From Rhodospirillales bacterium (lineage in GTDB: Bacteria; Pseudomonadota; Alphaproteobacteria; Rhodospirillales; Casp-alpha2), in contig JABJGO010000088.1 of assembly GCA_018662225.1 (NCBI GenBank), forward strand, positions 42,830 to 106,829: 64,000 nt of DNA. Reading direction: 5' to 3'. Shown one piece after another: positions 5,142 through 23,289 of the stretch. Below the pieces are notes generated by a model, which did not search any database, had not been told where the DNA came from, and worked only from the letters and a program-made list of their open reading frames with translations. The position numbers and the translations under genes were made by a program. Within the stretch, counting starts at the first letter, position 1. Every line of letters starts with the position of its first letter.

Positions 5142-5146
5142 TCAGC

Positions 5147-7895: not shown

Positions 7896-7973
7896 AGGAA
7901 TGAGGATTGCTGTGTGTCTGCGCCAGGGTCAGCGATCACTGGTCACTCTTACCTACAGTTGTATACACAATAA

Positions 7974-8849: not shown

Positions 8850-8986
8850 GATCATCTCCTTTTTGATCAAGTAACAATAGAGGTAGTCTAGCACCGGTCC
8901 CAAATCACGACCTTGAGGAAGATCAAGTACATCTATAAGTTCTGATTGTAGGTTGAGATAACGAGCCTACCGGAGAGCCGTGATCT

Positions 8987-10198
8987 ATGCCTGAGAAGCC
9001 TGAATTAAAGCGCAGCCTGTCGTTGCCCATGCTGGCGCTATACGGTCTGGGCACGACCATTGGTGCGGGCATATATTCCCTGATTGGTGAAGTGACGAAC
9101 ATAGCGGGCATGCAGGCACCCGCTGCGTTCCTGATGGCCGCAATCATGGCAAGCCTGACGGCCTTTAGCTTCGCCGAACTTGCCAGCCGATTCCCGCGCA
9201 GCGCGGGCGAGGCCTTTTACATACAAAAAGCATTTGAGCTCAAGTGGCTGTCTCTGGTCATTGGCCTGATGGTGGTGTTTGCAGGCGTGGTCTCGGCGGC
9301 CGCGATCGCAAATGCATTTGTGGGATACCTGCATGAATTTCTGGATGTGTCGCGGGTGACGGCGATTATTCTTATTATTGGCCTGTTGGGTATTGTCGCC
9401 GCATGGGGGATTAGCGAGTCCGTGATCGCCGCGGGTGTTGTTACCATCATCGAAATTGGCGGCCTGTGCATGGTGATCTGGGCCGGCGGCGATGAACTCA
9501 CGCGATTACCCGAGGTACTGCCCCAGATGGTGCCAAGTCTGGAATGGGGATCGCTCTCAGTCGTTATGGCGGGGGCCGTTCTGGCGTTTTTCGCCTTCAT
9601 CGGGTTTGAGGATCTGGTGAATGTGGCTGAAGAAACCAAAAACCCGGCGAAGGTTTTGCCAATGGCCATCGTCATCACACTGGTTGTGACCACCGTGATC
9701 TATGTTCTGATCAGTGTGATCGCGGTGCTTGCGGTGCCGCTCGATCAACTTACGTCTCACGAAGCCCCATTGGTCCTGATCTATGAAAGCAAGACCGGGC
9801 AATCGGCTTATATCCTCAGTATGATCGGTATAATCGCTGTGCTGAATGGCGCGCTGATTCAGATTATTATGGCTTCGCGCGTCCTGTATGGATTGGCATC
9901 GCAACGCATGTTACCCGGCATCCTGGCCACCGTGAATGCCCGCACACGGACGCCCGTGTATGCAACCGGCATGGTCGTCGGTGTGGTGTTGGTCCTGGCG
10001 CTGGGGTTCGGACTGGCTGGACTAGCCCAGACCACATCACTGATCACGCTGGCTATCTTCGCGTTGGTAAATGGTGCGCTGATCCGCATCCGGTTACGCG
10101 ACGGCAGGTCATTTAAGACCGTGAGTTATCCGCTGGCGGTACCCATACTGGGATTACTGGTCAGCCTTGGGTTTCTCGCCATCGGTATATTTGGCTAG
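8987..10198 (+). CDS. APC-family amino acid permease
   Basis: 403 aa, about 12 hydrophobic segments, N-terminal LYGLGTTIGAGIY signature. Confidence 0.8.
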   Translation: MPEKPELKRSLSLPMLALYGLGTTIGAGIYSLIGEVTNIAGMQAPAAFLMAAIMASLTAFSFAELASRFPRSAGEAFYIQKAFELKWLSLVIGLMVVFAGVVSAAAIANAFVGYLHEFLDVSRVTAIILIIGLLGIVAAWGISESVIAAGVVTIIEIGGLCMVIWAGGDELTRLPEVLPQMVPSLEWGSLSVVMAGAVLAFFAFIGFEDLVNVAEETKNPAKVLPMAIVITLVVTTVIYVLISVIAVLAVPLDQLTSHEAPLVLIYESKTGQSAYILSMIGIIAVLNGALIQIIMASRVLYGLASQRMLPGILATVNARTRTPVYATGMVVGVVLVLALGFGLAGLAQTTSLITLAIFALVNGALIRIRLRDGRSFKTVSYPLAVPILGLLVSLGFLAIGIFG

Positions 10199-10515
10199 GT
10201 CGCGCAGTCCATACAGTGTGCGGCAATAGGTAGCGCTTCCAGCCGCTTTTCATCAATAGCCGATTTGCACAGGGTACATTGCCCATAGGTGCCAACATCC
10301 ATGCGCGCCAACGCGGCTTTGATTTGCGCAATTTCTTCAAGGGCGGCGAGGCCGATATCTTCAAGGACTTCGTCGTCTTCGTTCTCCGTAGCGCGCTCTT
10401 CCGAATCGGCGCTATCGGGTTCGCGAAGTGAGCTATCGATTTCCTTCGCTTTTTGGCTAAGTTCCTCGAGCCGAGCCGTCAGGCCAGACCGGACGTCATC
10501 AATGTTAATCATCAC
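10195..10515 (-). CDS. DksA/TraR-family C4 zinc-finger protein
   Basis: 106 aa with an acidic coiled-coil N-terminus and a C-terminal CTLC...HCMDC four-Cys finger. It is convergent with the permease and overlaps it by 4 nt. Confidence 0.75.
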   Translation of the reverse strand: MMINIDDVRSGLTARLEELSQKAKEIDSSLREPDSADSEERATENEDDEVLEDIGLAALEEIAQIKAALARMDVGTYGQCTLCKSAIDEKRLEALPIAAHCMDCAT

Positions 10516-10617
10516 GAATCCCTAACGTATTGTTGGTATTCATGAAATCATACGATTGATGCGCCTGCCCGTCCTTGAGTTAAGTCAAGGCATTGTGGTT
10601 GAGCCCTGGGAACAGGC

Positions 10618-11394
10618 CTAGTTACCTAACAACCCTTCAAGCAATCCACCGGCTTCTTCTGCGGCGTCTTTGACCGTATCGCCAACTTCACCCGCCACAT
10701 CGGCCGCTTTGCCGGAGATATCCGCCAGACCAAGTGACGACAGGTCAATGCCACTGGCAGCTGAACTGGAATACTTGGTGATGGCCGAGATAATCTCATC
10801 AGCGACTTCAGCCGGGCTGGCACCACCAGATTCCTTACCGATATCCGTTAAATGAATGTCCGGCAAATCGGTGCTCAGCGATGATCCATCCATGAACGAT
10901 GCCGAAATGTTGATCTTGCCGCCTTTGATGTACAGATCGTTGATCACCACTTTGGGGCCATCTTCACCACTTGATGATGAATCGGATGAGCCTGATCCGC
11001 CGGCAACCTTCTCCACATTGCTTTGGATAGCATCGATGTTTGAGCCGTTCGATCCAATTTCATAAGTGATTTCAGGCGCGCTAATCATCACTTCTTCCAC
11101 AACAATGGTGTCCATGGTCCAATCATCGCTGATCTTCACGCTGACTTCACCCAGACTGATGGCTTGCGGCGTTTTGAAGCCGTCTGGATTGCCGACGACC
11201 AAACCGCGAATACCAGCCTTGAGATCAGTCAGGCTCAAATCCACATTTGATACGGATACGGATACCTGCGTAACAGCAGAGCCTTGATCTTCAATAACGG
11301 CCTTAATGATTTTCGGCGCATTCTGACTCAGGAAAAACATGCCGCCAGCAACCGCCACAACAACAACACAAAGCCCAATAACAATCTTCTTCAT
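10618..11394 (-). CDS. Hypothetical membrane-anchored protein (single N-terminal TM, Ser/Gly-rich linker)
   Basis: Long ORF with an N-terminal hydrophobic anchor (IVIGLCVVVVAVAGGMFFL). I recognise no catalytic motifs. Confidence 0.5.
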   Translation of the reverse strand: MKKIVIGLCVVVVAVAGGMFFLSQNAPKIIKAVIEDQGSAVTQVSVSVSNVDLSLTDLKAGIRGLVVGNPDGFKTPQAISLGEVSVKISDDWTMDTIVVEEVMISAPEITYEIGSNGSNIDAIQSNVEKVAGGSGSSDSSSSGEDGPKVVINDLYIKGGKINISASFMDGSSLSTDLPDIHLTDIGKESGGASPAEVADEIISAITKYSSSAASGIDLSSLGLADISGKAADVAGEVGDTVKDAAEEAGGLLEGLLGN

Positions 11395-11464
11395 AACGAT
11401 AACCTCCTGAAAAGAACGCGTAACTCAGCGCGTTTGTAAAACCCCCGTTCCATTATGGCATGGA

Positions 11465-13108
11465 TCAGGCCTCATTAAACTTAAACCGCGCGTGCTCCGG
11501 TTTCATTTGTGGCACACCGCGGATGAAATCAGCGGCACGCTCGCCAATCATTTGTGTGGGCGCATTCAGATTCCCGCTGACCACCTGTGGCATGACAGAT
11601 GCATCCACCACCCGAAGACCTTCGATGCCGCGCACCTTCATTTCACCATCGACAACGGCCATTTCGTCATTACCCATCCGGCAGGTGGCACACGGATGGA
11701 AATCCGTACTCACCGCCGAACGGATCCAGGCTTCGACGTCCTTGTCAGATGCGTTGTCCGGGCCGGGATTAATCTCACGGCCCCGATAATCATCAAAGGC
11801 AGGTTGGGCCACGAGGTCGCGAGCCGTGCGCACAGCTTCAATCATCTCACGCCGATCGTGTTCTTCGGTCATGTAATTGAAATGCATCGCTGGTTTGTCG
11901 TCGGGTGATGCAGATTTCAGCTCAATCCGGCCTGAGCTTTTGGGCCGCAGCTGATCGACATGGATCGAAAAGGCCTGATCCATGCGGATTTCATCCCCCA
12001 CGTATTCCACCCCAAAGGGTCCAAAGTGATATTGCAGATTGGCATAATCTACATCTGAGTTACCACGCACACAGCCACCGGCCTCCCAGATGTTGGATGC
12101 CGCGATACCGGTTTGGTTGAACAACCACTGTGCACCGGCCAGAGCTTTATTGATGGGGTTTGCCACCTTGTGGATGGTTACCGGCTTGGTACATTCGTAC
12201 TTCAGGGTGATGTTGGCGTGATCCTGCAAATTCTGCCCCACACCGGGCGAATCCAGCACCACATCAATACCGTGTTCACGCAAATGATCCGCCGGACCAA
12301 CGCCCGACAACATCAGTAACTGTGGTGAATTGATCGCACCGCCTGACAGGATGACCTCCTTTTGGGCGTGCACGGTGTATGTCTTGCCTTTTCGCGTGTA
12401 TTCCACGCCCACGGCACGGTTGTCTTCAAACAGGATACGCTGAACCATGGCATGAGTTTCAAGATACAAATTAGGCCGCGACAGCGCTGGCTTTAGGTGA
12501 GCCACCGCCGCACTGCACCGCCGGCCTTTGCGTTTGGTGCTATCCAGTCGGCTGACGCCTTCCGGGTTATAACCGTTGGGATCATCGGTGCGGCCCTGCC
12601 CGGCCTGTTCACCGGCTTCAAGGAACACATCATACAATGGGTTCTTCAGGCTGGCTTGCGAGACGCTCAGCGGCCCGTCGCCCCCGTGCCATTCGCTTTC
12701 ACCCCGTTCATTGGACTCGCAGCGCCGAAAATAAGGCAGGCACTGGTCATAGGTCCATTTTTCCAACCCGAATTCTGAGGCCCAGCGGTCATAATCCTTA
12801 GGGTGACCGCGCATATAAACCATGGAATTGATAGACGACGATCCACCCAGAACCTTGCCACGGGGCATCTCAACCTGACGCTCAAACAGATCGGGTTCAG
12901 CCTCGGTGTCATAATTCCAGTTGATGCGTTTGTCCTTGTAGACCTTGTACACACCGGCCGGAATATGGATCATCAGATCGCGGTCCGCAGGGCCAGCTTC
13001 GAGGATAGCGATCTTGTCCTGACCGCCCTCGCTTAAGCGGTTAGCCAGCACACAGCCCGCCGACCCGGCGCCCACAATGACATAATCTACAACTTCGTTT
13101 CTTTTCAT
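11465..13108 (-). CDS. GMC-family FAD oxidoreductase (choline dehydrogenase-like)
   Basis: N-terminal DYVIVGAGSAGCVLANRLSE, GMC signatures and a C-terminal HPCATCRMG active-site region. Length is 547 aa. Confidence 0.85.
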   Translation of the reverse strand: MKRNEVVDYVIVGAGSAGCVLANRLSEGGQDKIAILEAGPADRDLMIHIPAGVYKVYKDKRINWNYDTEAEPDLFERQVEMPRGKVLGGSSSINSMVYMRGHPKDYDRWASEFGLEKWTYDQCLPYFRRCESNERGESEWHGGDGPLSVSQASLKNPLYDVFLEAGEQAGQGRTDDPNGYNPEGVSRLDSTKRKGRRCSAAVAHLKPALSRPNLYLETHAMVQRILFEDNRAVGVEYTRKGKTYTVHAQKEVILSGGAINSPQLLMLSGVGPADHLREHGIDVVLDSPGVGQNLQDHANITLKYECTKPVTIHKVANPINKALAGAQWLFNQTGIAASNIWEAGGCVRGNSDVDYANLQYHFGPFGVEYVGDEIRMDQAFSIHVDQLRPKSSGRIELKSASPDDKPAMHFNYMTEEHDRREMIEAVRTARDLVAQPAFDDYRGREINPGPDNASDKDVEAWIRSAVSTDFHPCATCRMGNDEMAVVDGEMKVRGIEGLRVVDASVMPQVVSGNLNAPTQMIGERAADFIRGVPQMKPEHARFKFNEA

Positions 13109-13124
13109 GTGACCATCAACTAGT

Positions 13125-13970
13125 GTGTTTCAAATTCCCGACTTTCATGATGAGGCCAGATTGATGGATGAGGCAAGAGTAATCGAACACATTACGGGCT
13201 GGCTGTCCGACTATGCGCAAAAATCAGGCACTAAAGGCTTTGTTGTCGGTGTATCAGGAGGCATTGATTCGGCCATTACCTCCACACTGGGCGCCCGCAC
13301 CGGCCTGCCCATGTTGTGTGTAGAAATGCCCATTCATCAGCCCGAAAATCAGGTCAACCGTGCCCGTCAGCACATTGAATGGCTGGAACAGAGCCACGAC
13401 AACGTACAGTCTGTCGAGGTGTCATTGACCGGCGTTTATGACGATTTTGTTGCGGCCCTATCTAAAACATCAGTGGCCGAAACATCGCCAGAGAACCTTG
13501 CCGGTCACGATATGGCCCTGGTGAATTCACGCGCGCGACTGCGTATGACCACGCTCTATTATCATGCCGCGGCCCGCGGGCTTCTGGTGCTGGGCACCGG
13601 CAACAAAGTTGAAGATTTCGGCGTGGGCTTTTACACCAAATACGGTGACGGCGGCGTTGATATATCACCCATCGCCGATCTGACCAAGACTCAGGTCTAC
13701 GCCGTGGCCAAGGGGCTGGGTATCAGCGACGAAATTATGCAGGCCCCGCCCACAGATGGTTTATGGGGCGATGACAGAACCGACGAGGACCAACTGGGCG
13801 CCACGTATCCTGAACTGGAATGGGCCATGGAATTTTCAGGTGATGAGAAAAACCTTAGTGACAGAGAGGCTGAAGTGCTTGCCATTTACCGCCGCTTGAA
13901 CCGGGCCAATCAGCACAAAATGGAACCCATTCCGGTTTGTGAAATTCCAGATGAAATGATTAAGCCATAA
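13125..13970 (+). CDS. nadE: Ammonia-dependent NAD+ synthetase
   Basis: PP-loop motif VGVSGGIDSA and NadE-like length. The start is uncertain; an alternative ATG lies at 13164. Confidence 0.85.
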   Translation: MFQIPDFHDEARLMDEARVIEHITGWLSDYAQKSGTKGFVVGVSGGIDSAITSTLGARTGLPMLCVEMPIHQPENQVNRARQHIEWLEQSHDNVQSVEVSLTGVYDDFVAALSKTSVAETSPENLAGHDMALVNSRARLRMTTLYYHAAARGLLVLGTGNKVEDFGVGFYTKYGDGGVDISPIADLTKTQVYAVAKGLGISDEIMQAPPTDGLWGDDRTDEDQLGATYPELEWAMEFSGDEKNLSDREAEVLAIYRRLNRANQHKMEPIPVCEIPDEMIKP

Positions 13971-13974
13971 CTGG

Positions 13975-14835
13975 TTATATGGCTTCAAACAGCCAGGTGA
14001 CGAATGCCTGCGCCGCAGTCTCTGCGCCCCGGCCCGAACCGATCGCCACGTAGTAGTTTTCATCAGAAACAATGGCGCCCGGCACAGGCTGGGACAATTG
14101 CCCCGATTCCAGCTTGTCACGGCACAAGAATTCTCCACACAGCGCAATGCCCTGCTTGTTTTCAGCCAGTTCAAGCGCCAGTTCATCTGAATCAACCGAC
14201 AGGCTGGCAATTGCACCAACATCCACACCGGTTTCACTGGACCACCGCCCCCAGGTATTTGCCGTCCCCATAGTGTGGATCAGAGGGCCCTGAAACGCAC
14301 CAGAATACAAAGATTCCATATCCGGGTGGCAAACGGGAAGCATGGTGTCCTGCATAAGGCGCTCGGCACCATCGCCGACCAGATCCCTCGATCCGTATCT
14401 GATCTGTACATCGCTATCCACCTTGGTGTAGTCATCCGGCCAGTTTGCGCTGACGATCCGTACATCCCGCGTAGACTGGTTATTCATAAAATTACCAATA
14501 TGGCCGCAAAGCCACAGCCGGGCGAAGCTGCTGCTACAGGCGATGACCAGAATGTCATCGCCCTGATGGGGATCAAACATCTCTGTGGCCAATGACAGAT
14601 CGGCCATAGCACCGGAAACATAAGGCATCAACCGGCGCCCGGATTCCGTTAGAGCAATACCGCGGGCCTTGCGCACGAACATCTGGGTACCCAACCGATT
14701 CTCCAGCAGGCGTACCTGCTGGCTAACGGCGGATTGAGTAATGTTCATTTCCCGCGCAGCGCCTGTAAAACTAAGATGTCGAGCCGCACATTCAAATGCC
14801 CGAAACCATGTGAGTGGTGGAAGTGATTTTGCCAT
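13975..14835 (-). CDS. LysR-family transcriptional regulator
   Basis: HTH FECAARHLSFTGAAREMNITQSAVSQQV. Start set at MAKSLPPL (14835). It is divergent from the HD/Rieske genes. Confidence 0.85.
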   Translation of the reverse strand: MAKSLPPLTWFRAFECAARHLSFTGAAREMNITQSAVSQQVRLLENRLGTQMFVRKARGIALTESGRRLMPYVSGAMADLSLATEMFDPHQGDDILVIACSSSFARLWLCGHIGNFMNNQSTRDVRIVSANWPDDYTKVDSDVQIRYGSRDLVGDGAERLMQDTMLPVCHPDMESLYSGAFQGPLIHTMGTANTWGRWSSETGVDVGAIASLSVDSDELALELAENKQGIALCGEFLCRDKLESGQLSQPVPGAIVSDENYYVAIGSGRGAETAAQAFVTWLFEAI

Positions 14836-14974
14836 AAGCCTCAACCTAGTCATAAGCAATACTAATGGCTTTGACAGTGTTTTTATCGATTGTCCAGCCA
14901 CGCAAGCGGTGTCACCTTGGTAACAGGGCCATTTTGGAATCATTTTTGAGTCGTTAATTCGACAGGGAGTTCGT

Positions 14975-15601
14975 ATGGAACAGGTCAAATTTACAGAAAT
15001 GCAACAAGGCGACGTAGAGGATTATGCCTTTCTTGAGCCATTGGAAATCGAATACGCCAGTGGCACGGGCCAGCGCGTATTCGACTCACTGGATGCGCTG
15101 GATACCAGCTTTTCAGGATTCCAGATTTCGCGCCTTGGTCATTCTGTTCAATCCGCCACCCGCGCATGGCGGGACGGTGCCGACATCGACTGGGTCGTAA
15201 GCGCGTTACTGCACGATATTGGTGATGTGTACGCGCCTTATAATCACGATGAATATGCGGCCGTTGTTCTGGCTCCGTTTGTGCGTGAACAATGCACCTG
15301 GACCGTGAAGGTTCATGCGGATTTTCAAAAATACTATTACGCTGACAAAGTGGGTGGCAACAAGGACGTGCGCGACAAATATCGCGATCATGCGTGCTTT
15401 GATGATTGTGCTGATTTTTGCGCGCTGTGGGATCAGAACAGTTTTGATCCGGCCTATGATGACCTGCCGCTGGAATTCTTCCGGCCCATGGTTTTGGAAG
15501 TTTTCGCCCGCAAAGCGTTTGATCCTGATGTGTTGCGTAGCGGCGTTCGTGAGCCGTTGGTCAATGATACCGTCGCCGCGCAGCGGAAAAAAGCGGCGTG
15601 A
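14975..15601 (+). CDS. HD-domain protein with a PhnZ/TmpB/MIOX-like diiron-oxygenase ligand pattern
   Basis: 208 aa. Candidate ligands are H56, H80-D81 (LLHDIGD), H91, H114 and D153 (ALWDQ). The block RLGHSVQSA...ALLHDIGD parallels the PhnZ pattern QLEHSLQCA...ALLHDLGH as I recall it. Confidence 0.55.
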   Translation: MEQVKFTEMQQGDVEDYAFLEPLEIEYASGTGQRVFDSLDALDTSFSGFQISRLGHSVQSATRAWRDGADIDWVVSALLHDIGDVYAPYNHDEYAAVVLAPFVREQCTWTVKVHADFQKYYYADKVGGNKDVRDKYRDHACFDDCADFCALWDQNSFDPAYDDLPLEFFRPMVLEVFARKAFDPDVLRSGVREPLVNDTVAAQRKKAA

Positions 15602-15619
15602 TTTTGAAAGGTCTATGCC

Positions 15620-16759
15620 ATGTTTGAGCAGCTGCATACTGATTTAAACGGTGTTGCGGCGCCCATCGAAACATCGGCCAGCCTGCCGCCAGCATGCTAT
15701 GCGGATGCAGACGTTGCAGGCTTGGAACGCGATGCGGTGTTCCGTACATCGTGGGTCGGCATCGGGCGATGGGATCAATGGAAAAACGTGGGCGACTACA
15801 GCGCCCTGACCATTGCCGATATTCCGGTTATTGTGGTGCGCGATAAATCCCAGGTTCTAAAGGCCTATTCCAATTCCTGTCGCCACCGGGGATCGTTGAT
15901 GCTGGAAGGCAGCGGTAATGCCCAGACCATCAGTTGCCCATTCCATCGCTGGACTTATGGTCTGGATGGTGAATTACGTGGCGCGCCCGATATGCCTGAA
16001 TGCGCAACCTTCAATAAATGTGACCATGGCCTGGTCCAGTTCCGCGCTGCCGAGCGCGACGGTTTCGCCTTTATCTGTTTCGATGATGCCACCCCGGACT
16101 TAGATGAATGGCTGGGTGATTTTTCTGAACTGCACGCGCCTTGGAAGATGGGCGAATTGGTTACAACCCGTCGGTTGGAACTTGAGGTGGATTGTAACTG
16201 GAAGGGCTTTCTTGAAGTCTTTAACGAGTACTATCACCTGCCCTATGTTCACCCCGATACCGTTGCCAATGTATATGCGCGACCAGAAGCTGCCGATGCG
16301 GTTACTGGAAAGTATGCCAGCCAGTTCAGCGTCACCGAAGGGACCGGTGGATTGCTGGAGGCAACGCAAGCCTACGCGCTGCCCGCCATTCCATGGTTGG
16401 AAGGCCGCAACAAGAGCGGCACCCGCTATACCTGGCTATTCCCCAACATGACATTTGCGGCCAGCACGGAAGCCATCTGGATTTATGAAGCAACGCCACT
16501 GGAAACAGGGCGTTGTCGGGTGGTCATGACGGTGTGTTTCCCACCGGAAACCGTGGCGCTGGATCAGTTCGAGGAATGCTCTCAAGTGTACTACGACCGC
16601 ATGGATGCGGCGCTGGCCGAAGATATCCCGGCTCTTGCCCGGTATCACAAAGGACTTGCGTCACCGTTTGCCAAACAGGGCTGCTATTGTGCCGATCTGG
16701 AACCGAATGTAGCGAGCTTCGCCTTTTGGTATGCTGATCATATGCGACAAGCAATATAG
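15620..16759 (+). CDS. Rieske [2Fe-2S] non-heme iron oxygenase alpha subunit (GbcA/CntA/Stc2-like architecture)
   Basis: Rieske motif CRHRG...CPFHRW and mononuclear-iron motif NEYYHLPYVH. Length is 379 aa. No reductase gene is adjacent. Confidence 0.85.
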   Translation: MFEQLHTDLNGVAAPIETSASLPPACYADADVAGLERDAVFRTSWVGIGRWDQWKNVGDYSALTIADIPVIVVRDKSQVLKAYSNSCRHRGSLMLEGSGNAQTISCPFHRWTYGLDGELRGAPDMPECATFNKCDHGLVQFRAAERDGFAFICFDDATPDLDEWLGDFSELHAPWKMGELVTTRRLELEVDCNWKGFLEVFNEYYHLPYVHPDTVANVYARPEAADAVTGKYASQFSVTEGTGGLLEATQAYALPAIPWLEGRNKSGTRYTWLFPNMTFAASTEAIWIYEATPLETGRCRVVMTVCFPPETVALDQFEECSQVYYDRMDAALAEDIPALARYHKGLASPFAKQGCYCADLEPNVASFAFWYADHMRQAI

Positions 16760-16813: not shown

Positions 16814-18475
16814 TTAAGCGAACCACCAGCGCTCACCGAAGTGCGCACCATCCAGTTCCCAGTTGTTGCCGATGTTATCCTGCATGCCGACTTTGTCACT
16901 AACAGCCATAAGATCAGCCGCAAACAGAGGCAAACATACGCCGCCTTCCATATTGACGATCTGCTGCATCTCAACATAGATATCACGGCGTTTGGTTTGA
17001 TCCAGTTCAGCACGCCCCATGATCAGAAGTTCGTTAAACCGATCATGTTTCCAATAGGTATCGTTCCAACTGGCGTCTGCGGCGTAAACCTGAGAGAACA
17101 TCCAGTTTTCAGTTGGACGGCCACTCCAGTAACAAGCACTGAAAGCTTTTTTCATCCAAACATTGGACCAGTAGCCATCGTTAGGCTCGCGGATAACTTC
17201 CACGTCGATGCCAGCTGCACGGGCTGATTCACGCATCAGCTGACCCGCATCAACGGCACCGCCAAATCCGGTTTCCGCTGCATGGAACTGAATTTTCAGA
17301 CCATCCATGCCAGCCTTTTTCAGGTGATGTTTTGCTTTTTCAGGATCGTATGCACGCTGAGGCAACTCATCTGTGGTGGCCCGATAGAAGTTAGCTGGAC
17401 CAATAGGGTTATCATTACCCAACTCACCATTACCACGCAGGATCAGCTTCAACCACTGTTCACGATCCACGATATGTTTCACGGCCATACGAACATCATT
17501 GTTATCGTATGGCGCCGTGTCGGTACGCATGGGCAACGTAATCTGTTTGTTACCTGTGACGGAGTGAACATTGATACCAGGCGCTTTATCAAGCAAGTGA
17601 ACGGTTTTGTGTGCCACGTTGTTCATGGCATCGAACTCACCGGACTGAAGACCACTGGTACGGGCGGTGGCATCGGCGACCTGGAAAACTTCCACTTCGT
17701 CGAAATACGCCGAATTTTCTTTCCAGTAATTCGGGTTGCGTGTGGAAAGCGTACGCACACCGGGGTCATGCTCAGTGATTGAATAACTGCCGGTACCGAT
17801 ACCGGACTGCCAATCAATGGTGCCGTCGTCATTCGCCGGACACATGAGAAGGTGATAGTCGCTCAAAATATACGGGAAATCGGCATCGCCGCCGGACAAC
17901 TTCACAACAACGTTGTTCTTGCCATCAGTTTTGACGGATTCAACGCCGTTCAAAATGCCCTTGGCAGCAGATGTGGAATCCTCACCCAGATGATGATTGA
18001 GTGATGCAGCAACATCGTTGGCATCAAGCGTTTTGCCGTTTGTGAATTCAATACCTTTGCGGATATTGAAATTCCACTCGCTGGCGTCAGCAGAAGCTTC
18101 CCAGCTTTCCGCCAGTTCACCAACCAGCTCGCCATTGGCGTCAACCTCGGTGAGGTTGTTTCTGGCCTGACCAAACTGTACGACCAACATATAGAGATCG
18201 AGGATTTGACCCGGGTCCAGCGTATCACTTGTTGCGCCACCGGTCAGCGCGGTCCGCATGCGGCCACCCTTTTTCGGTGTCGCAGCCTGGACTTCGCTCA
18301 CAAAACTCGTCGCCGCAACCAACCCTACGCCGAGTGCAGCGGCACCGGTCATAAACCCGCGACGATCAATCGACCCTGATTCAAAGCCGGACTGTAGAGA
18401 AGCAATTTTAAGAGCTGTTTCACGGTCAGCTACGCCGTCTGAAAGCATTGTTTTTATAAGGTCTTTTCTAATCAT
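16814..18475 (-). CDS. ABC transporter substrate-binding protein, family 5 (peptide/nickel/opine type), with a twin-arginine signal
   Basis: 553 aa. A Tat-like motif DRRGFMTGAAALG is followed by AxA. Overall similarity to family-5 SBPs. No permease or ATPase genes are nearby. Confidence 0.85.
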   Translation of the reverse strand: MIRKDLIKTMLSDGVADRETALKIASLQSGFESGSIDRRGFMTGAAALGVGLVAATSFVSEVQAATPKKGGRMRTALTGGATSDTLDPGQILDLYMLVVQFGQARNNLTEVDANGELVGELAESWEASADASEWNFNIRKGIEFTNGKTLDANDVAASLNHHLGEDSTSAAKGILNGVESVKTDGKNNVVVKLSGGDADFPYILSDYHLLMCPANDDGTIDWQSGIGTGSYSITEHDPGVRTLSTRNPNYWKENSAYFDEVEVFQVADATARTSGLQSGEFDAMNNVAHKTVHLLDKAPGINVHSVTGNKQITLPMRTDTAPYDNNDVRMAVKHIVDREQWLKLILRGNGELGNDNPIGPANFYRATTDELPQRAYDPEKAKHHLKKAGMDGLKIQFHAAETGFGGAVDAGQLMRESARAAGIDVEVIREPNDGYWSNVWMKKAFSACYWSGRPTENWMFSQVYAADASWNDTYWKHDRFNELLIMGRAELDQTKRRDIYVEMQQIVNMEGGVCLPLFAADLMAVSDKVGMQDNIGNNWELDGAHFGERWWFA

Positions 18476-18580: not shown

Positions 18581-19432
18581 CTAGGCCGACAATGCCACAC
18601 CTTCCAGTGTGATCCGATGCATGACCCGGCGCTGGCCCGCGTAATCGTTGGTCGCATAGTGCCAGGTCGCGCGATTATCCCACATGGCGACGGACCCTTT
18701 CTGCCATTGAAAACGGCAGGTAAATTCGGGCTGAACACCATGATCATAGAGATAATTCAACAAAGGTTGTGATTCTTTCTGGGTCCATCCATCAAACCGG
18801 ACCGTGAAACTATCGTTCACATATAACGCCTTGCGGCCTGTATCCGGGTGGGTGATAACAACCGGGTGCAAGGCATCCTGCGTGGCCAGTTCCGGATTTC
18901 CTATTCGACCATCCTTGCGGGACTCAAGATCAACGTTCACATAACCATAGTTATGGCGGCTGGAATGCCAGGCCTGCAGGCCTTCCAGCGTTTCCTGCAT
19001 GCCTGGTGACAGGGCTTCATAGGCTTTGTACATGCTGGCAAAATGCGTATCACCGCCCATGGCAGGGACTTCACAGGCATACAGAATAGAACCCAGCGAG
19101 GGTATCTGGTCATAGGAATGATCCGTGTGCCACCCGCCGCCAATATTGTCCTTCTGGTCTGGCTCCTTTATGACCTGGGCGATCATGGGATGGGTATCCA
19201 GCGGTTTAAAAAACCGATTGATATTAATATCGCTCCACCGCTCGGCAAAGGCCACGTGCTGATCCGGAGTTATTTCCTGATCGTGGAAGAAAATGACGGA
19301 ATAGCGACCGAACGCCTCTTTAATTTCCGCAAATGTCTCGTCGTCCATCTGGGCGAGGTTCACCCCGCTGATTTCCGCCCCAAGGGCGGCAGCAACCGGC
19401 GTGACTTGAATGCGCTCAAAATTATCAGGCAT
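18581..19432 (-). CDS. TauD/TfdA-family Fe(II)/2-oxoglutarate dioxygenase
   Basis: 283 aa with WHTDHSY (HxD) and a distal His. The N-terminal layout is typical of TauD. Confidence 0.85.
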   Translation of the reverse strand: MPDNFERIQVTPVAAALGAEISGVNLAQMDDETFAEIKEAFGRYSVIFFHDQEITPDQHVAFAERWSDININRFFKPLDTHPMIAQVIKEPDQKDNIGGGWHTDHSYDQIPSLGSILYACEVPAMGGDTHFASMYKAYEALSPGMQETLEGLQAWHSSRHNYGYVNVDLESRKDGRIGNPELATQDALHPVVITHPDTGRKALYVNDSFTVRFDGWTQKESQPLLNYLYDHGVQPEFTCRFQWQKGSVAMWDNRATWHYATNDYAGQRRVMHRITLEGVALSA

Positions 19433-19456: not shown

Positions 19457-20542
19457 CTACTCAAATACAATAATATTTCGCAAAGCATCACCCCGACGCA
19501 CGGATTCAATCGCCTCGTTTACCTGGTCCAGCGTGTAACGTCCGGTTATCAGCTCATCCAGTTTGAGACGGCCTTGTTTATAAAGCGATGTGAGCTTCGG
19601 AATATCTGAGACCAGCTTGGTCGATCCCATCTTGCTGCCCAATATTCTTTGCGTGGCGTCGGCCAGGTTCAATGGCGCGAACGCCGCCGTAGCACCCACT
19701 GGTGGCATGCCAACAATAACCACCGCACCACTGGGCGAGATCATTGATATGGCCTGTTCAACAGCGACCGTGGCCCCCACGGTCACAAATGCGTAATCCG
19801 CACCACGGCCATCGGTCAGCGCCTTGACCTGATCCACCACATCATTGGCACCAGCGTTTAGACCATGCGTTGCACCGAAATCCAGGGCGGCTTCAGTCTT
19901 GGCATCATTCAGATCAAGCGCAATGATCGTCTTGGCACCAGACAGGGCGGCACCCTGTACACTGTTTAGGCCCACACCACCTACGCCAATCACAACCACG
20001 TTGCTGCCCGCCGGGACTTGGGCGGTATTGGTCACAGCGCCCAGGCCCGTAATCACACCGCATGATATCAGCGAAGCGCTTTCCATGGGGATATCATCCG
20101 GGATCGGTGCCACCTGCGATGCATGAACAACAACCTGTTCCGCAAAAGCGGATGTTCCAAGCCCCTGCACAATGTCACCACGCCCGTCAGAAAATGACAG
20201 GGGACTTTTTTCACCCAATGAGAATACGGCTTCACAGTTTGTATGCGCACCTTGCGCGCAATAATGACAGGTCCCGCAGGATCGGATCAGCGTGACCAGA
20301 ACGTGATCGCCCACCTTTGTGTTTGTGACCCCGTCACCGGTGCTTTCTACGACGCCTGCGGCCTCATGCCCGTAAATGGCCGGCAACGCGCCGCCCCATT
20401 TTCCTTCCATATAGGTGATGTCACTATGGCAAATAGCACAGGCCGAGAGTCGGACTTTCACCTCACCAGATTGTGGATCAGCAATGTCCACGTCTTCGAT
20501 AACCAAAGGCTTTCCAAATTCGTGGCAAACAGCCGCTTTCAT
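19457..20542 (-). CDS. Zn-dependent alcohol dehydrogenase (MDR family)
   Basis: Catalytic and structural Zn Cys/His pattern (CAICHSD; CGTCHYCAQG) and a Rossmann motif VIGVGGVG. Confidence 0.85.
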   Translation of the reverse strand: MKAAVCHEFGKPLVIEDVDIADPQSGEVKVRLSACAICHSDITYMEGKWGGALPAIYGHEAAGVVESTGDGVTNTKVGDHVLVTLIRSCGTCHYCAQGAHTNCEAVFSLGEKSPLSFSDGRGDIVQGLGTSAFAEQVVVHASQVAPIPDDIPMESASLISCGVITGLGAVTNTAQVPAGSNVVVIGVGGVGLNSVQGAALSGAKTIIALDLNDAKTEAALDFGATHGLNAGANDVVDQVKALTDGRGADYAFVTVGATVAVEQAISMISPSGAVVIVGMPPVGATAAFAPLNLADATQRILGSKMGSTKLVSDIPKLTSLYKQGRLKLDELITGRYTLDQVNEAIESVRRGDALRNIIVFE

Positions 20543-20630
20543 TTAACGATCTCCTGACCGGAAGGAAATTGAACGTTGCGTGAGAGTATCTTACGATGGC
20601 TGGAAACCAGTGCAACCGGAATCCTTGCCC

Positions 20631-21731
20631 ATGGCGAAGCCGAACGTATTCAGAACCTGTGATACAGCCCTTATTTGGCCGCGCATGCCCAGTGCGGGTG
20701 ATGCCAGTATTCTGGTCATGGATATTCAACTGAGCCAAAGCCAGAGTTATGACGCCGAGCGGCTCCAGGCTTTGCAACTGAATCAGCTTAGTGGCCTCAT
20801 CGATCATGCCTTTGCCACCGTGCCGTTTTACCGGGACCGGCTGACTAGTGTTTGCACGGCAAGCGAGGCCACTAATCTCACCACGGGCCTCACAATAGAC
20901 ATGTGGCGACAGATACCCATTCTGAAGCGGGACGAGGTGGTGAAGGCGGGTGCCAAATTACAGTCCACGGCTGTACCATCATCGTTCGATCCGATTACGG
21001 GCGCATCCACATCGGGCACCACTGGTGATCCGGTAACAATCAAGAAAAGCAGTGTGGATCAACTGTTCTTTCACGCCAACCGTTTGAGGGCCCACCGATG
21101 GACGGGAGTCGAATTCTCTAAACCCATGGCTAACATCACTGTTCTGAATGCCCACACGAAAAAACTGGCCGATCAGAACAAAGCCGTGCCATGGGCCGCA
21201 GGGCATGTATCCGGCCCCATGTATTATTGCGACACCAACCGACCCGTTGATGACAAGATAGACTGGTTGCTCAAAACAAAAGTGGCCTATCTCATGACAT
21301 CGCCATCCAGTCTCAGGGACTTGATCACGAGGTCCAAAGCCCGCAATATTTCCTTCGAAACCTTGTCGCATATAATCTGCACGGGTGAGCCATTGAGCGG
21401 CGATACGCGCGCCCTTTGCGATGAGGAATGGAGCCTGCCTGTGTGGGATATCTATTCAACCCAGGAAGCCGGTATTATCGCTGCACAATGCCCCGACCAT
21501 GAGCACCTGCACACCATGGCGGAATCCCTGATGGTTGAGGTTCTCGACAATAACGACACGCCCTGCCAACCGGGACAGACAGGGCGGGTAGTCGTTACCC
21601 CGCTACAGAATTTCGTTATGCCCTTGATCAGATACGAAATTGGTGATCAAACCGAGGTAGGCGAAGCCGTGTGTTCTTGCGGAAGAGGCTTGCCCGTTAT
21701 TAAGCACATTCAAAGGGTGACGCCGTCATGA
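20631..21731 (+). CDS. Phenylacetate-CoA ligase/CapK-like adenylate-forming enzyme, apparently lacking the C-terminal subdomain
   Basis: Has TSGTTGDP (P-loop-like AMP motif), YSTQEAG and IRYEIGD. The ORF stops right where family members continue with the roughly 100-aa C-terminal lid. The start is uncertain (20580, 20631 or 20718). Confidence 0.6.
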   Translation: MAKPNVFRTCDTALIWPRMPSAGDASILVMDIQLSQSQSYDAERLQALQLNQLSGLIDHAFATVPFYRDRLTSVCTASEATNLTTGLTIDMWRQIPILKRDEVVKAGAKLQSTAVPSSFDPITGASTSGTTGDPVTIKKSSVDQLFFHANRLRAHRWTGVEFSKPMANITVLNAHTKKLADQNKAVPWAAGHVSGPMYYCDTNRPVDDKIDWLLKTKVAYLMTSPSSLRDLITRSKARNISFETLSHIICTGEPLSGDTRALCDEEWSLPVWDIYSTQEAGIIAAQCPDHEHLHTMAESLMVEVLDNNDTPCQPGQTGRVVVTPLQNFVMPLIRYEIGDQTEVGEAVCSCGRGLPVIKHIQRVTPS

Positions 21732-21738
21732 AACAGCC

Positions 21739-22635
21739 ATGAAACAAGAAGACATCCTAAAACACGAACCAACGGTGATCAGCAAAGCACAACGCCAGGG
21801 TTATTTCGATGATGGCTATATATGCCTGCCCCAGTTAATCAGTGCGGACTGGATTGAAAAGATCAATGCAGCCCTCGCCAAACAGATCGAAAACAGCCGA
21901 ACGTTGACCGAGTCCGAAGGGCCTTATGATCTGGAAGACGGGCATTGCTATGATGACCCGCGCCTGCGCCGAATTTCTTTCGTGGATGACTTAGACGCCG
22001 TGTTCTGGGAATTTGCCACTCAATCCATTCTACCCGATCTTGCCGCCGACATCATGGGGCCCAACATTTCATTTCGGGAATTCATGGTGAATTTCAAATG
22101 GTCTGGCGGCGGACAGGAAGTAAAGTGGCACCAGGACATTCCTTTTTATCCACACACCAATTTGTCACCGGCTCAATTTTTGGTCTTTCTTGATGATGTG
22201 GGCCCTGAACAGGGACCCTTGCAAGTCGTTCCCGGAAGCCACAAAGGCCCCGTCTATGATCACTATGATGATCAGGAAAACTGGGTCGGCTATATTCCGG
22301 ATGAACAACACGACAAGCTGGGGTTGGACAAGGCCCTTACGTTAACCGGCACAGCAGGCACGGTCAGTGTGCACCACTGCGCCACAGTTCATGGATCACG
22401 CCAGAATAACAGCCCGCAATCGCGCCCTGCATTGGTTATCGGCTATACGGCCGCCGATGCGGTGCCGTTTACAGCGGCGCCCTATCCGAGCACTCACTAT
22501 GGTGAAATCGTGCGCGGCGTTCGTACGGGGCGTGTCCATCAGGAAGCAACTGAGATGCGTATGCCGCCTGACTGGACACATGGTTACACATCCATCTTCT
22601 CTCACCAGAAAACTGACGACGTTACGATGGGGTAA
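21739..22635 (+). CDS. Phytanoyl-CoA dioxygenase (PhyH)-family Fe(II)/2-OG oxygenase
   Basis: 298 aa. WHQD (HxD) and a distal His in VHHCATVHGS, typical of the PhyH family. Confidence 0.8.
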   Translation: MKQEDILKHEPTVISKAQRQGYFDDGYICLPQLISADWIEKINAALAKQIENSRTLTESEGPYDLEDGHCYDDPRLRRISFVDDLDAVFWEFATQSILPDLAADIMGPNISFREFMVNFKWSGGGQEVKWHQDIPFYPHTNLSPAQFLVFLDDVGPEQGPLQVVPGSHKGPVYDHYDDQENWVGYIPDEQHDKLGLDKALTLTGTAGTVSVHHCATVHGSRQNNSPQSRPALVIGYTAADAVPFTAAPYPSTHYGEIVRGVRTGRVHQEATEMRMPPDWTHGYTSIFSHQKTDDVTMG

Positions 22636-22640
22636 GTATC

Positions 22641-23039
22641 ATGTTCGATCAACAAGTGACATTCCTCTATACCCGCGACCTGGATGCCAGCGCATTATTT
22701 TATGAGCAGACACTGGAACTCCCGCTGATCCTGGATCAGGGCGCCTGCCGGATATTCCAGTCCAGTCCCCACAGCTTTATTGGCGTATGTACATGCAGCG
22801 AAGAACGTCCATCTAACCCGGATGGTATCATTGTGACACTGGTATCAAACGATGTGGATGGATGGTACGATACACTGCGGTCGAAAGGCGTTATGTTCGA
22901 TACACCACCATCCGAAAATCCGGCCTACAATATCTATCACTGTTTCCTGAAAGATCCGGATGGCTATCAGATCGAAATTCAATCTTTCCGTGACGTCAAT
23001 TGGCCTGATACTGCCTCTGCCCCCGTAAACAAAACGTGA
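22641..23039 (+). CDS. VOC (glyoxalase/bleomycin resistance/dioxygenase) family protein
   Basis: 132 aa, beta-alpha-beta-beta-beta type. DPDGYQIEI near the C-terminus is characteristic of the family. Confidence 0.75.
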   Translation: MFDQQVTFLYTRDLDASALFYEQTLELPLILDQGACRIFQSSPHSFIGVCTCSEERPSNPDGIIVTLVSNDVDGWYDTLRSKGVMFDTPPSENPAYNIYHCFLKDPDGYQIEIQSFRDVNWPDTASAPVNKT

Positions 23040-23289
23040 TCGCGGCGGCATTATGGTTTCAGCTTGATGTAATCATAATAGAGTATCAGTGGGCGTTCAG
23101 ACATTCCAAGAACGTGCTGTGCGCGTCATCACATTAAGGTCAACTATCCATCTGTATACTTTCTTACAGTCTCGATATGTTGAAATATGTTGAAGTTCAC
23201 GCAGCGATCACCATGTGTACCGTCAGCACACACATTGCCATACAGATAATTTATTAACGTTTCGTACTAACACTTGGACAACAAGTAAA

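Follow-up and report, generated by a model that had tools for sequence, protein, structure and literature searches.

As judged from its sequence, the HD protein described here belongs to a large family of its own, uncharacterised and sister to the PhnZ/TmpB diiron oxygenases, and it is an orthologue of neither PhnZ, TmpB nor MIOX. The family defined here kept the diiron site and had a different pocket. Since its members occur in carnitine and betaine breakdown contexts, and since a Rieske oxygenase gene is fixed beside the HD gene in the lineage of the window (the whole stretch of 64,000 nucleotides that was analysed), the substrate that the protein cleaves is probably a hydroxylated quaternary ammonium compound and not a phosphonate. 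The preliminary description of this DNA had offered two kinds of substrate, an aminoalkylphosphonate or a hydroxylated onium compound. The second fitted the evidence best.

The positions of the genes are listed in Table 1. The TGA stop codon of the HD frame ends at 15601 and the ATG of the Rieske frame starts at 15620, which confirmed the reported gap of 18 nt. An AGGGAG ribosome-binding site was read 7 nt 5′ of the HD start codon, a GAAAGG-type ribosome-binding stretch was present between the two genes, and no terminator-like site was seen there. The Rieske gene is predicted to be co-transcribed with the HD gene. The LysR gene was divergent, as had been claimed, and only its start required correction: the mechanical open reading frame (13975–14988) overlaps the start of the HD gene, its HTH domain does not begin until residue 59, and the LysR gene in fact starts with the ATG at 14835 (MAKSLPP...). 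The regulator scored 212 bits with NF008352 and 178 bits with TIGR03418, both below the cut-offs. No sigma-70-like match was found on the plus strand of the region between the LysR and HD genes. A LysR gene was also divergent from the HD gene in two related loci (L083 and L091) and in the Phaeobacter and Ruegeria plasmids, and the HD gene and its regulator may form an inducible catabolic module.

Table 1. Genes and intergenic region around the HD and Rieske genes, with positions counted from the first nucleotide of the window.
Feature	Position	Strand	Basis
GMC oxidoreductase, choline dehydrogenase subfamily	11465-13108	-	NF002550 750 bits, cut-off 605
LysR-family regulator, GcvA / choline-sulfate-regulator-like	13975-14835	-	HTH_1 + LysR_substrate
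Divergent LysR-HD intergenic region, 139 bp, presumed regulatory	14836-14974	.	sequence reading
HD-domain protein, 208 aa	14975-15601	+	ORF; ligands H56, H80, D81, H91, H114, D153
Rieske non-haem iron oxygenase alpha subunit, 379 aa	15620-16759	+	PF00355 + PF00848
Family-5 solute-binding protein, TAT-exported	16814-18475	-	PF00496; TIGR01409 above cut-off
TauD-family Fe/2-OG dioxygenase	18581-19432	-	PF02668; NF007104 250 bits, cut-off 313
Zn-dependent alcohol dehydrogenase	19457-20542	-	ADH_N + ADH_zinc_N; strand shared with TauD and binding protein
PaaK-like adenylate-forming enzyme, PhyH and VOC, one direction	20580-23039	+	profile matches
PhyH-family dioxygenase	21739-22635	+	
VOC/glyoxalase protein	22641-23039	+	

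All six residues of the H...HD...H...H...D set proposed for the HD protein were present, and alignment showed that the full diiron ligand set was in place. These residues were invariant in a 16-member alignment of the family, and the six ligands were retained in 93–97 of 100 diverse representatives. They were in register with the TmpB ligands both in the sequence alignment and in hhalign, in which the comparison with a TmpB-type profile reached 97.8% probability (E 1e-12). PDB sequence matches at E < 0.01 were to PhnZ only, and PhnZ was the best match with a single sequence (E 4e-5) as well as with a profile (E 5e-8). The AF2 model had a pLDDT of 84, and the top 10 Foldseek matches to it were all PhnZ or TmpB (E 7e-6 to 3e-4, TM 0.60–0.72), followed by a match at E 0.34. 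No hydrolase was found among the significant neighbours of the protein in the PDB sequence search or in Foldseek. The PDB, Foldseek and hhalign results thus agreed with the earlier view that the HD protein resembles diiron oxygenases and not phosphohydrolases. The six-ligand motif also occurs in some dinuclear HD hydrolases (PMC8177086), so the motif alone is no proof of oxygenase activity.

TmpB, which is the (R)-1-hydroxy-2-(trimethylammonio)ethylphosphonate oxygenase (PDB 6NPA), had the same HD fold and ligand set (Foldseek E 6e-5, TM 0.61–0.69), and the same ligand set was found in PhnZ, the 2-amino-1-hydroxyethylphosphonate oxygenase (PDB 4MLN/4N6W), which also gave the best fold match (Foldseek E 7e-6). 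The HD protein shared 19–21% identity with the solved TmpB when matched by fold and 22–29% with TmpB-type sequences in the alignment. Its scores, however, remained below every curated cut-off: 22.3 bits with the TmpB model NF049941 (cut-off 300), 31.4 bits with the PhnZ model TIGR03276 (cut-off 214.6), 24.0 bits with the PhnZ1 model NF052439 (cut-off 300), which represents the Gimesia maris enzyme, and 21.6 bits with the MIOX family PF05153 (gathering score 25), where residues 42–111 aligned with positions 48–117 of the 249 in the profile. The true TmpB encoded at one related locus (L092) scored 319.9 bits with NF049941.

Differences were also found around the metal site. The His three residues past the HD dyad, which gives HDxGH in PhnZ and TmpB (HDIGH in TmpB), was replaced, so that the family reads HDIGD/E; the residue is D84 in the window protein and D or E in 77 of the 100 representatives. 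The Lys four residues past the fifth ligand was replaced by Q118, with Q in 84 of the 100. From the PhnZ structures, we take this His and this Lys to have roles in catalysis and phosphonate binding. The YxxE loop (YLGE in TmpB), ten residues before the first His, was absent from the window protein, whose aligned positions are F46 and F49; the stretch became (L/F)SG(Y/F) in the HD family, where L/V/T and Y/F/A occupied these two positions. The loop is common to PhnZ and TmpB, and its Tyr caps Fe2 and its Glu binds the substrate amine (PMC8177086). The TmpB segments 'LCAT..' and 'LQGGPM..' were absent, four TmpB-specific insertions were missing from the HD protein, and it differed from TmpB by an N-terminal extension of ~25 residues. 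With the YxxE loop, the His and the Lys replaced and the TmpB segments absent, these comparisons, made on sequence and profile alignments, suggested that the pocket of the family is not of the phosphonate type. The orthology with PhnZ, TmpB and MIOX was rejected because of the scores below all cut-offs, the missing loop, the Asp in place of His, the absent TmpB segments and the coexistence of the HD protein with TmpA/TmpB in one genome.

MIOX (myo-inositol oxygenase) was the sole Pfam family match of the HD protein, below threshold, and some relatives carry the NCBI name 'inositol oxygenase family protein'. MIOX is larger than the HD protein and was absent among the fold matches; its scaffold can cleave C–C bonds. 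SmaX also cleaves a C–C bond and acts on an alpha-hydroxy acid, whereas MIOX uses a vicinal diol (PMC12186529). SmaX is mononuclear and has no second-metal ligands, while the HD family keeps all six. PhoF is a natural PhnY-PhnZ fusion of fungi (PMC10574752) and resembles the hydroxylase-HD fusions of protists described below, although PhoF acts on aminophosphonates. SmaO/SmaX and PhoF follow the two-step logic that is proposed here for the HD family, a hydroxylase followed by oxidative cleavage in an HD domain.

The order of HD gene and Rieske gene was kept in six genome loci (the window, L001, L002, L003/L091, L005/L092 and L083), with a spacing from a 4-bp overlap to 33 nt and with different flanks. 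The identities across these loci were 63–78% for the HD protein and 56–79% for the Rieske protein. About 11 metagenome contigs also had matches to both, paired by equal size. The Rieske-linked HD proteins formed one clade, and the adjacency occurred in 4 of the 80 best HD loci. The pairing singled out in the preliminary description was therefore conserved within one clade, in the same order and with different flanks; the survey of 80 loci led to its rejection as a trait of the whole family. A Rieske protein with 71% identity was found in L081 in the same GMC-NadE-Rieske-TauD synteny, without the HD and LysR genes, which indicated that the Rieske enzyme is not dependent on the HD protein. Of seven more remote relatives of the Rieske protein, five were not encoded next to an HD gene.

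Clustering at 90% identity gave about 3,500 clusters for the HD family, from more than 550 species. At 50% identity, there were 288 clusters with E ≤ 1e-30, plus fusion proteins of protists. The gene contexts were surveyed in the 80 best genome loci. The family was found most often in the carnitine/gamma-butyrobetaine operon that Mesorhizobium, Hoeflea and their relatives carry: 54 of the 80 loci lay inside such an operon, in the order BKACE, HD, carnitine 3-dehydrogenase, acyl-CoA dehydrogenase, CoA ligase and a crotonobetainyl-CoA-hydratase-like gene, and no phosphonate gene was found in these 54. Most genomic copies of the HD gene are flanked by the genes for BKACE and carnitine dehydrogenase, whereas the window has no homologue of either. 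The S. meliloti carnitine pathway described by Bazire in 2019 reportedly has five enzymes, none of them known to be an HD protein. No biochemical datum on any family member was found in the searchable literature, and full-text searches returned nothing relevant that connects an HD oxygenase with carnitine or with a Rieske enzyme.

Other clades had other hydroxylases beside the HD gene. A PhyH-type 2-OG dioxygenase gene preceded the HD gene and overlapped its start in 11 of the 80 best loci. On a P. aeruginosa plasmid, a TmpA-like TauD gene (347 bits, cut-off 400) was followed by the HD gene, in a cluster with a choline-binding protein, a choline dehydrogenase and a betaine-aldehyde-dehydrogenase-like gene. 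In Phaeobacter, the HD gene was followed by a sterol-desaturase-type hydroxylase (FA_hydroxylase). Marine protists encoded fusions of a BBOX/TmpA-like TauD domain, or of an FA_hydroxylase domain, with an HD domain that has the signature residues of the family; the TauD parts scored 201–234 bits against the TmpA cut-off of 400. PhnZ and TmpB, unlike MIOX, act after a hydroxylase whose gene is their neighbour. At the family level, a hydroxylase adjoined the HD protein as PhyH, TmpA-like TauD, FA-hydroxylase or fusion partner; in the window, the Rieske enzyme, a putative hydroxylase, was the only oxygenase encoded directly beside it. Some HD genes were solitary. In the Ruegeria TM1040 plasmid, a hidden partner after the HD gene was rejected, as the unannotated stretch is a tRNA/rRNA region. 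TmpB and the HD family share a link to trimethylammonium catabolism and a hydroxylase that often adjoins both. A true TmpA/TmpB pair adjoined the HD and Rieske genes in L092, and the presence of a true TmpB in that locus argued for a different job of the HD protein.

The Rieske protein had both expected domains (PF00355, E 4e-17; PF00848, E 1e-34). Its best characterised relatives were CntA, GbcA and Stc2 (stachydrine demethylase), and the best solved one was the carnitine monooxygenase CntA (6y8j, E 1e-28), with which the cluster motif CxH...CxxH and the iron motif E-x-x-H-x4-H could be aligned (CRH...CPFH and NEYYHLPYVH). The best NCBIfam model was GbcA (NF058607), with 133.3 bits against a cut-off of 670 over residues 18–227 only, that is, the N-terminal ~210 residues. 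The label GbcA/CntA-like was therefore justified as a resemblance and not as a membership. No GbcB/CntB-type reductase gene was found among the neighbours and about 40 scanned open reading frames of the window, where the sole Fer2 domain belonged to a RACo protein (62104–63990). A protein with 100% identity to the Rieske protein was recorded from a Rhodospirillales MAG. Relatives of the Rieske gene were found near OpuAC and MttB genes.

From homology, the ligand set, the fold, the gene contexts and the fusions, we infer a metal state, a reaction, a substrate and an order of the enzymes. In the explanation that we prefer, and to which we give about an even chance, the HD protein would be a diiron oxygenase of the PhnZ/TmpB/MIOX type, its substrate would likely be a carnitine-like trimethylammonium compound, and the Rieske enzyme would most likely supply the hydroxylated substrate. 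By analogy with the known enzymes, the substrate hydroxyl would bind one iron and O2 the other, the C–H next to the hydroxyl would be abstracted, and a four-electron oxidation would cleave the adjacent C–X bond with no external reductant. The substrate would most likely have the form Me3N+-CH2-CH(OH)-X, where X bears a carboxylate as in L-carnitine and is not a phosphonate, and the most likely product would be glycine betaine. The link to quaternary ammonium compounds draws on the carnitine operons, on the choline and betaine genes of the P. aeruginosa plasmid cluster, on the TmpA/TmpB pair of L092 and, in the window, on the choline-dehydrogenase-type GMC enzyme and the dimethylglycine/sarcosine-dehydrogenase-like and MttB/corrinoid/RACo proteins. 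As the fixed and co-transcribed partner in the lineage of the window, the Rieske enzyme would fill the slot held elsewhere by PhyH, TmpA/BBOX-like TauD or fatty-acid-type hydroxylases; consumption of the betaine product by the Rieske enzyme seems less likely. Against this explanation, the carnitine dehydrogenase and BKACE already give glycine betaine in the carnitine operons, so that a second carnitine-cleaving enzyme looks redundant. We know of no precedent among HD oxygenases for C–C cleavage next to a plain methylene. The Rieske gene of L081, the Rieske relatives that do not adjoin an HD gene, the solitary HD genes and the failure to find a reductase gene among the scanned frames of the window also count against it.

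We tentatively speculated further, in a form that is rather doubtful, that the HD family may be a new class of diiron oxygenases. It would cleave a C–C bond of a carnitine-type compound (Me3N+-CH2-CH(OH)-CH2-COO- or a close analogue) to glycine betaine in one O2-dependent step without CoA, NAD or external reductant, and its hydroxylase partner would have been swapped repeatedly (Rieske, PhyH, TmpA/BBOX-like TauD, fatty-acid-type, or none if carnitine is the substrate). Quaternary ammonium compounds are major osmolytes in the sea and in soil and a source of trimethylamine and glycine betaine. To our knowledge, characterised HD-domain oxygenases are few (MIOX, PhnZ, PhnZ1, TmpB, PhoF and the mononuclear SmaX), and all known bacterial two-enzyme HD cascades use an Fe/2-OG hydroxylase. 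If the proposal is true, there would be an unrecognised route in the well-studied carnitine pathway and a first cascade from a Rieske enzyme to an HD oxygenase. Pathway maps and gene-based flux estimates would have to change if glycine betaine were reached by an O2-dependent shortcut, and surveys of 'phnZ-like' genes may miscount the family as phosphonate enzymes. The swappable partners, the Rieske enzyme included, would offer a natural experiment in the assembly of two-step oxidative cleavage pathways.

The two enzymes might also act in the reversed order, which we consider unlikely but worth serious attention: the HD protein would make glycine betaine or a close analogue from a compound that naturally carries a hydroxyl, for example carnitine, and the Rieske enzyme would then oxidise an N-methyl or N-adjacent carbon of this product, in the manner of GbcA, Stc2 and CntA. 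The Rieske enzyme would in that case not be a 'new hydroxylase partner' feeding the HD protein. This order is consistent with the HD gene being first in the operon, with the nearest characterised Rieske relatives (CntA, the Stc2-type 3vca/4qup, the GbcA model), which attack carbons on a quaternary nitrogen, and with the OpuAC and MttB genes near Rieske relatives. The GMC-Rieske-TauD-GMC setting of the HD-less L081 resembles choline/betaine oxidation, and the many HD proteins without an adjoining hydroxylase, in carnitine operons or as solitary genes, fit an already hydroxylated substrate. However, C–H hydroxylases, sometimes fused, fill the slot beside the HD protein in other clades, which favours a hydroxylase acting before it; in addition, the Rieske protein reached only 133 bits with GbcA (cut-off 670) over its N-terminal half, and no GbcB-like reductase was nearby.

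An improbable reading is a variant oxidative C–P cleavage of an aminoalkylphosphonate (2-AEP itself, an N-methylated form of it or a homologue), in which the Rieske enzyme would replace PhnY/TmpA and the HD protein would release phosphate as an isoenzyme of PhnZ/TmpB. Among characterised proteins, the closest relatives are PhnZ and TmpB, the fungal fusion PhoF is known (PMC10574752), and the TmpA-like partners and fusions, together with the TmpA/TmpB pair adjoining the HD and Rieske genes in L092, make a phosphonate substrate possible. On the other hand, the HD protein was far under all three model cut-offs (31 vs. 215, 24 vs. 300 and 22 vs. 300 bits), the residues and TmpB-invariant segments named above were replaced or deleted, the true TmpB of L092 argued for another job, and more than half of the surveyed loci were carnitine operons free of phosphonate genes. 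The window contained no phosphonate transport or Pho gene and no TmpA or PhnY homologue, and hence no PhnY-type partner for a PhnZ. On these grounds, the aminoalkylphosphonate option of the preliminary description was weak. It is still less probable that the HD protein is a hydrolase (a betainyl-CoA/carnitinyl-CoA thioesterase or a nucleotide phosphohydrolase), which would make the Rieske adjacency mechanistically meaningless. Most HD proteins are phosphohydrolases, those that are dinuclear have the same ligand pattern (PMC8177086), and the public names of the family include 'predicted HD phosphohydrolase' and 'peptidase'. The carnitine dehydrogenase of Mesorhizobium lacks the C-terminal thioesterase part of NF005716 (profile 1–339 of 495). 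The HD protein as a substitute for this missing domain was rejected, because in Hoeflea (L008) and in L004 it adjoins a full-length dehydrogenase-thioesterase (profile 1–486 and 4–494 of 495). The lack of hydrolases among the significant neighbours also speaks against this reading, and the fusion to or adjacency with four kinds of O2-dependent hydroxylases would be hard to explain.

The further neighbours named in the preliminary description (TauD, PhyH, the Tat-exported solute-binding protein, Zn-ADH and VOC) were present as described. The GMC gene kept its synteny in L001, L002 and L081. The solute-binding protein had no adjoining permease genes, and L001 and L002 encoded copies in the corresponding position, with 90 and 67% identity, respectively. 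The TauD protein, encoded on the strand opposite to the HD gene, was taurine-dioxygenase-like and not TmpA/BBOX-like; it accompanied the Rieske gene in L002 and in L081. It was rejected as the canonical HD partner, since it stays with the Rieske gene where the HD gene is absent. The PhyH protein had 29% identity over 154 aa to the HD-partner PhyH of Rhodobacteraceae, and the set of PaaK-like, PhyH and VOC genes was not found in the related loci; this PhyH was also rejected as the canonical partner. The Zn-ADH is possibly a member of the pathway. Further genes of the window encoded an MttB/corrinoid/RACo system and a protein resembling dimethylglycine/sarcosine dehydrogenases.

The ORF listing confirmed the HD-domain gene and the Rieske oxygenase gene (Table), separated by 18 nt as the preliminary description had claimed. 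A purine stretch resembling a ribosome-binding site precedes both start codons, and no terminator-like site was found in the 18-nt gap. The LysR-family gene was indeed divergent from the HD gene; domain matches to its mechanical ORF begin at residue 52–59, and its actual start codon is the ATG at position 14835, which leaves a 139-bp divergent control region between the two genes. The other neighbours named earlier (TAT-signal binding protein, TauD, Zn-ADH, PhyH, and VOC) were all real according to domain and model searches. The TAT-signal binding protein was an orphan with no permease or ATPase gene beside it, and it occupied the same position in two other loci (L001 and L002). A Rhodospirillales MAG protein on record was 100% identical to the Rieske ORF.

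Table. Positions of features in the window and in related loci (L numbers).
Sequence	Feature	Position	Strand	Remarks
Window	Dimethylglycine/sarcosine dehydrogenase-type protein	1233–3740	−	835 aa; DAO, FAO_M, GCV_T
Window	GMC oxidoreductase, choline-dehydrogenase type	11465–13108		NF002550, 750 bits, above cut-off
Window	NAD synthetase (NadE)			Neighbour gene; Pfam/NCBIfam searches
Window	HD protein	14975–15601	+	208 aa
Window	Rieske oxygenase	15620–16759	+	379 aa
Window	Family-5 solute-binding protein	16814–18475	−	TAT signal
Window	TauD enzyme, taurine-dioxygenase-like			Neighbour gene
Window	Zn-ADH			Neighbour gene
Window	PaaK-like ligase			Neighbour gene
Window	PhyH enzyme			Neighbour gene
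Window	VOC protein			Neighbour gene
Window	Metallo-beta-lactamase-fold protein	23215–25476	+	753 aa
Window	Coenzyme F420-type genes	34497–41734, 47928–48962, 57090–58091
Window	Corrinoid methyltransferase set	59127–63990		Complete
L023	Carnitine operon with HD	9050–15755
L030	Cobalamin cluster with HD	9511–11112
L081	Rieske without HD	4371–10639
L088	HD on plasmid pDOK1-1-2	7001–9483
L092	TmpA/TmpB beside HD-Rieske-TauD	5699–10998

The proposed likeness of the HD protein to diiron oxygenases was borne out by both sequence and fold. MIOX was its sole contact in Pfam, below the threshold (21.6 vs. 25 bits), and in NCBIfam it touched only three phosphonate HD oxygenase models (22–31 bits against cut-offs of 215–300). 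PhnZ provided the only PDB matches at E < 0.01 in a single-sequence search, while the family profile reached PhnZ at E 5e-8 and TmpB at E 3e-4. Profile–profile comparison with TmpB-type sequences gave a probability of 97.8% (E 1e-12). The ten best fold matches of the AlphaFold model (pLDDT 84, pTM 0.81) were PhnZ and TmpB (E 7e-6 to 3e-4, TM 0.60–0.72); the first other protein appeared at E 0.34, and the HD hydrolases RelH, PgpH, Ddi2, and GppA at E ≥ 0.8. In direct alignment with the bona fide TmpB of locus L092 (320 bits vs. a cut-off of 300), all six ligands (H56, H80, D81, H91, H114, and D153) were in register; they were invariant in close relatives and kept in 93–97 of the 100 sequences taken to represent the wider family. 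Thus, the ligand set was complete, and the protein did not cluster with phosphohydrolases.

However, the HD protein is not an orthologue of PhnZ or TmpB, as judged from its sequence, and every feature tested as a mark of PhnZ, TmpB, PhnZ1, or MIOX was absent from it. An HD-domain review described a YxxE loop common to PhnZ and TmpB (PMC8177086); the aligned window residues were F46 and F49, and in the family at large these positions were L/V/T and Y/F/A. In place of the His that follows the dyad in the HDxGH motif of PhnZ/TmpB stood Asp or Glu; Gln took the position of the Lys found four residues past the fifth ligand, and four TmpB-specific insertions, including "LCAT.." and "LQGGPM..", were absent. 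The family instead had its own N-terminal extension and a peculiar set of near-invariant residues (R63, N90, W109, F117, Q118, R133, C149, F157, and D158). The missing TmpB/PhnZ residues are presumably those that bind phosphonate in the PhnZ structures. The HD protein resembles PhnZ and TmpB in its metal site and probably in its chemistry.

The HD family comprised 3,485 clusters at 90% identity (E ≤ 1e-3) and occurred in more than 552 species genomes; 288 representatives at 50% identity were found at E ≤ 1e-30 and 1,414 at E ≤ 1e-10. Database names included "predicted HD phosphohydrolase," "peptidase," and "HD domain-containing protein." Genomic context was surveyed in the 80 best genome loci, whose HD proteins were 62–78% identical to that of the window. 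In 54 of them (Mesorhizobium, Hoeflea, Ahrensia, Zhengella, and some Rhodobacterales; for example L023, L008, L019, and L039), the HD gene was wedged between BKACE (PF05853), a dehydrocarnitine-cleavage-type enzyme, and carnitine 3-dehydrogenase (NF005716, above cut-off), followed by acyl-CoA dehydrogenase, ADP-forming CoA ligase, and an enzyme resembling crotonobetainyl-CoA hydratase. This gene set is that of carnitine/gamma-butyrobetaine catabolism, a pathway in which an HD protein is not known to have a role. The thioesterase part of the adjoining carnitine 3-dehydrogenase was absent in Mesorhizobium and kept in Hoeflea and L004.

A PhyH-family Fe/2-OG dioxygenase gene ended on the HD start codon in 11 of the 80 loci, all from Rhodobacteraceae, and the Rieske gene was the partner in four loci of Rhodospirillales/Kiloniellaceae (L001, L002, L003, and L005). 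In five Aestuariivirga-type loci (L015, L030, L053, L064, and L069), a glyoxalase-like ORF lay on one side of the HD gene and a conserved 160-aa ORF without a Pfam match on the other, and this trio was embedded among the cobalamin biosynthesis genes CbiX, CobN, and CobO. The remaining six had none of these contexts. Outside the survey, the gene was solitary in L093 and paired with LysR on a Ruegeria plasmid. A P. aeruginosa plasmid showed the order LysR, TmpA-like TauD (347 bits vs. a cut-off of 400), HD, choline-binding protein, choline dehydrogenase, and a gene resembling betaine-aldehyde dehydrogenase; a CaiB-family CoA-transferase lay close by. Among distant representatives, fusions from marine protists (Dracoamoeba, Mucochytrium quahogii, and Mantoniella antarctica) and metagenomes joined a BBOX/TmpA/TMLH-like TauD domain (P0269, P0274, P0287, P0293, and P0389) or a fatty-acid-hydroxylase domain (P0281/P0513) to an HD domain with the family signature residues; an epimerase-HD fusion (P0277) was also found. 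On the Phaeobacter inhibens plasmid pDOK1-1-2, the order was LysR, divergent HD, sterol-desaturase-type hydroxylase, and PanB-like gene. RefSeq named this 61%-identical homologue "inositol oxygenase family protein" and gave it a GO term for inositol catabolism; the name is probably misleading, given the hydroxylase and PanB-like operon partners.

The HD gene preceded the Rieske gene in the window, L001, L002, L003 (=L091), L005 (=L092), and L083, with spacing from a 4-bp overlap to 33 nt and identities down to 63% for HD and 56% for Rieske. The flanks varied: L091 had hydrogenase genes and a two-component system, L083 had phage-like genes, and L092 had a true TmpA/TmpB pair. Eleven top HD metagenome matches each equalled a top Rieske match in the size of the longest contig. 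In the neighbour-joining tree, the Rieske-linked HDs formed one clade, the PhyH-linked HDs formed a separate clade nested among the carnitine-operon HDs, and true TmpB had a very long branch. The pairing is tight inside its clade. It did not extend to L081, where a 71%-identical Rieske gene lay in the synteny of the window (GMC, NadE, Rieske, TauD, and GMC) with both HD and LysR missing between NadE and Rieske, nor to five of seven Rieske relatives at 55–59% identity, which had no HD nearby; some of these relatives adjoined OpuAC/MttB or TetR/DctPQM genes. The difference between L081 and the window is an indel of LysR plus HD, and these observations make LysR plus HD look like a unit placed ahead of a pre-existing Rieske gene. 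In L092, a Rhodospirillales MAG, TmpA and TmpB (567 and 320 bits, each above cut-off) were divergent beside HD-Rieske-TauD, so that two different HD oxygenase-type genes lay in one 5-kb stretch.

In the proposed reaction, the substrate hydroxyl would bind one iron and O2 the other, and a four-electron oxidative cleavage would follow, similar to that of PhnZ, TmpB, and MIOX (summarised in PMC8177086). The HD family was coupled repeatedly, both physically and genetically, to O2-dependent hydroxylases and was repeatedly associated with trimethylammonium catabolism. L-carnitine and OH-TMAEP, the substrate of TmpB, share the skeleton Me3N+-CH2-CH(OH)-X, and the carbon that BBOX hydroxylates corresponds to the one hydroxylated by TmpA. 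Carnitine would be supplied directly in the carnitine-operon loci and to the solitary genes, and a hydroxylase would be supplied in the PhyH, Rieske, plasmid, and fusion contexts. Based on this skeleton, the shared carbon, and these contexts, the most economical reading is that the HD enzyme would cleave a carnitine-type compound to form glycine betaine. The bond broken would then be a C-C bond adjoining a methylene. Speculatively, a zwitterion could be bound by the conserved Arg63 and Arg133 together with acidic residues 84 and 158.

In the window, the Rieske enzyme would serve as the hydroxylase ahead of HD. It resembled CntA/GbcA, yet scored far below the GbcA cut-off. The reversed order, in which HD acts first and the Rieske enzyme then oxidises the betaine product, is a possible alternative, favoured both by L081, with its Rieske gene lacking HD, and by what CntA, GbcA, and Stc2 do.

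The literature searched gave no account of this HD family, which may nevertheless have appeared earlier in a similarity network, and described neither an HD oxygenase in carnitine metabolism nor a Rieske-HD cascade. The family is of interest mainly for its size, its common occurrence in the environment, and its unexplained place in a well-studied pathway.

Elsewhere in the window, the dimethylglycine/sarcosine-dehydrogenase-like protein, the GMC enzyme, and the corrinoid methyltransferase set support a context of methylated-amine metabolism. The first of these would act downstream of glycine betaine. The corrinoid set consisted of an MttB-family protein, a B12-binding protein, a pterin-binding methyltransferase, and the reductive activator RACo with a 2Fe-2S domain; such systems demethylate glycine betaine or other quaternary amines. 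Among the F420-type genes in this alphaproteobacterial window were those for an FrhB/FdhB-like protein, CofD, and a CofG/CofH-like radical-SAM fusion of 795 aa, as well as two luciferase-like monooxygenases. The 753-aa metallo-beta-lactamase-fold protein carried a C-terminal cyclic-nucleotide-binding domain.
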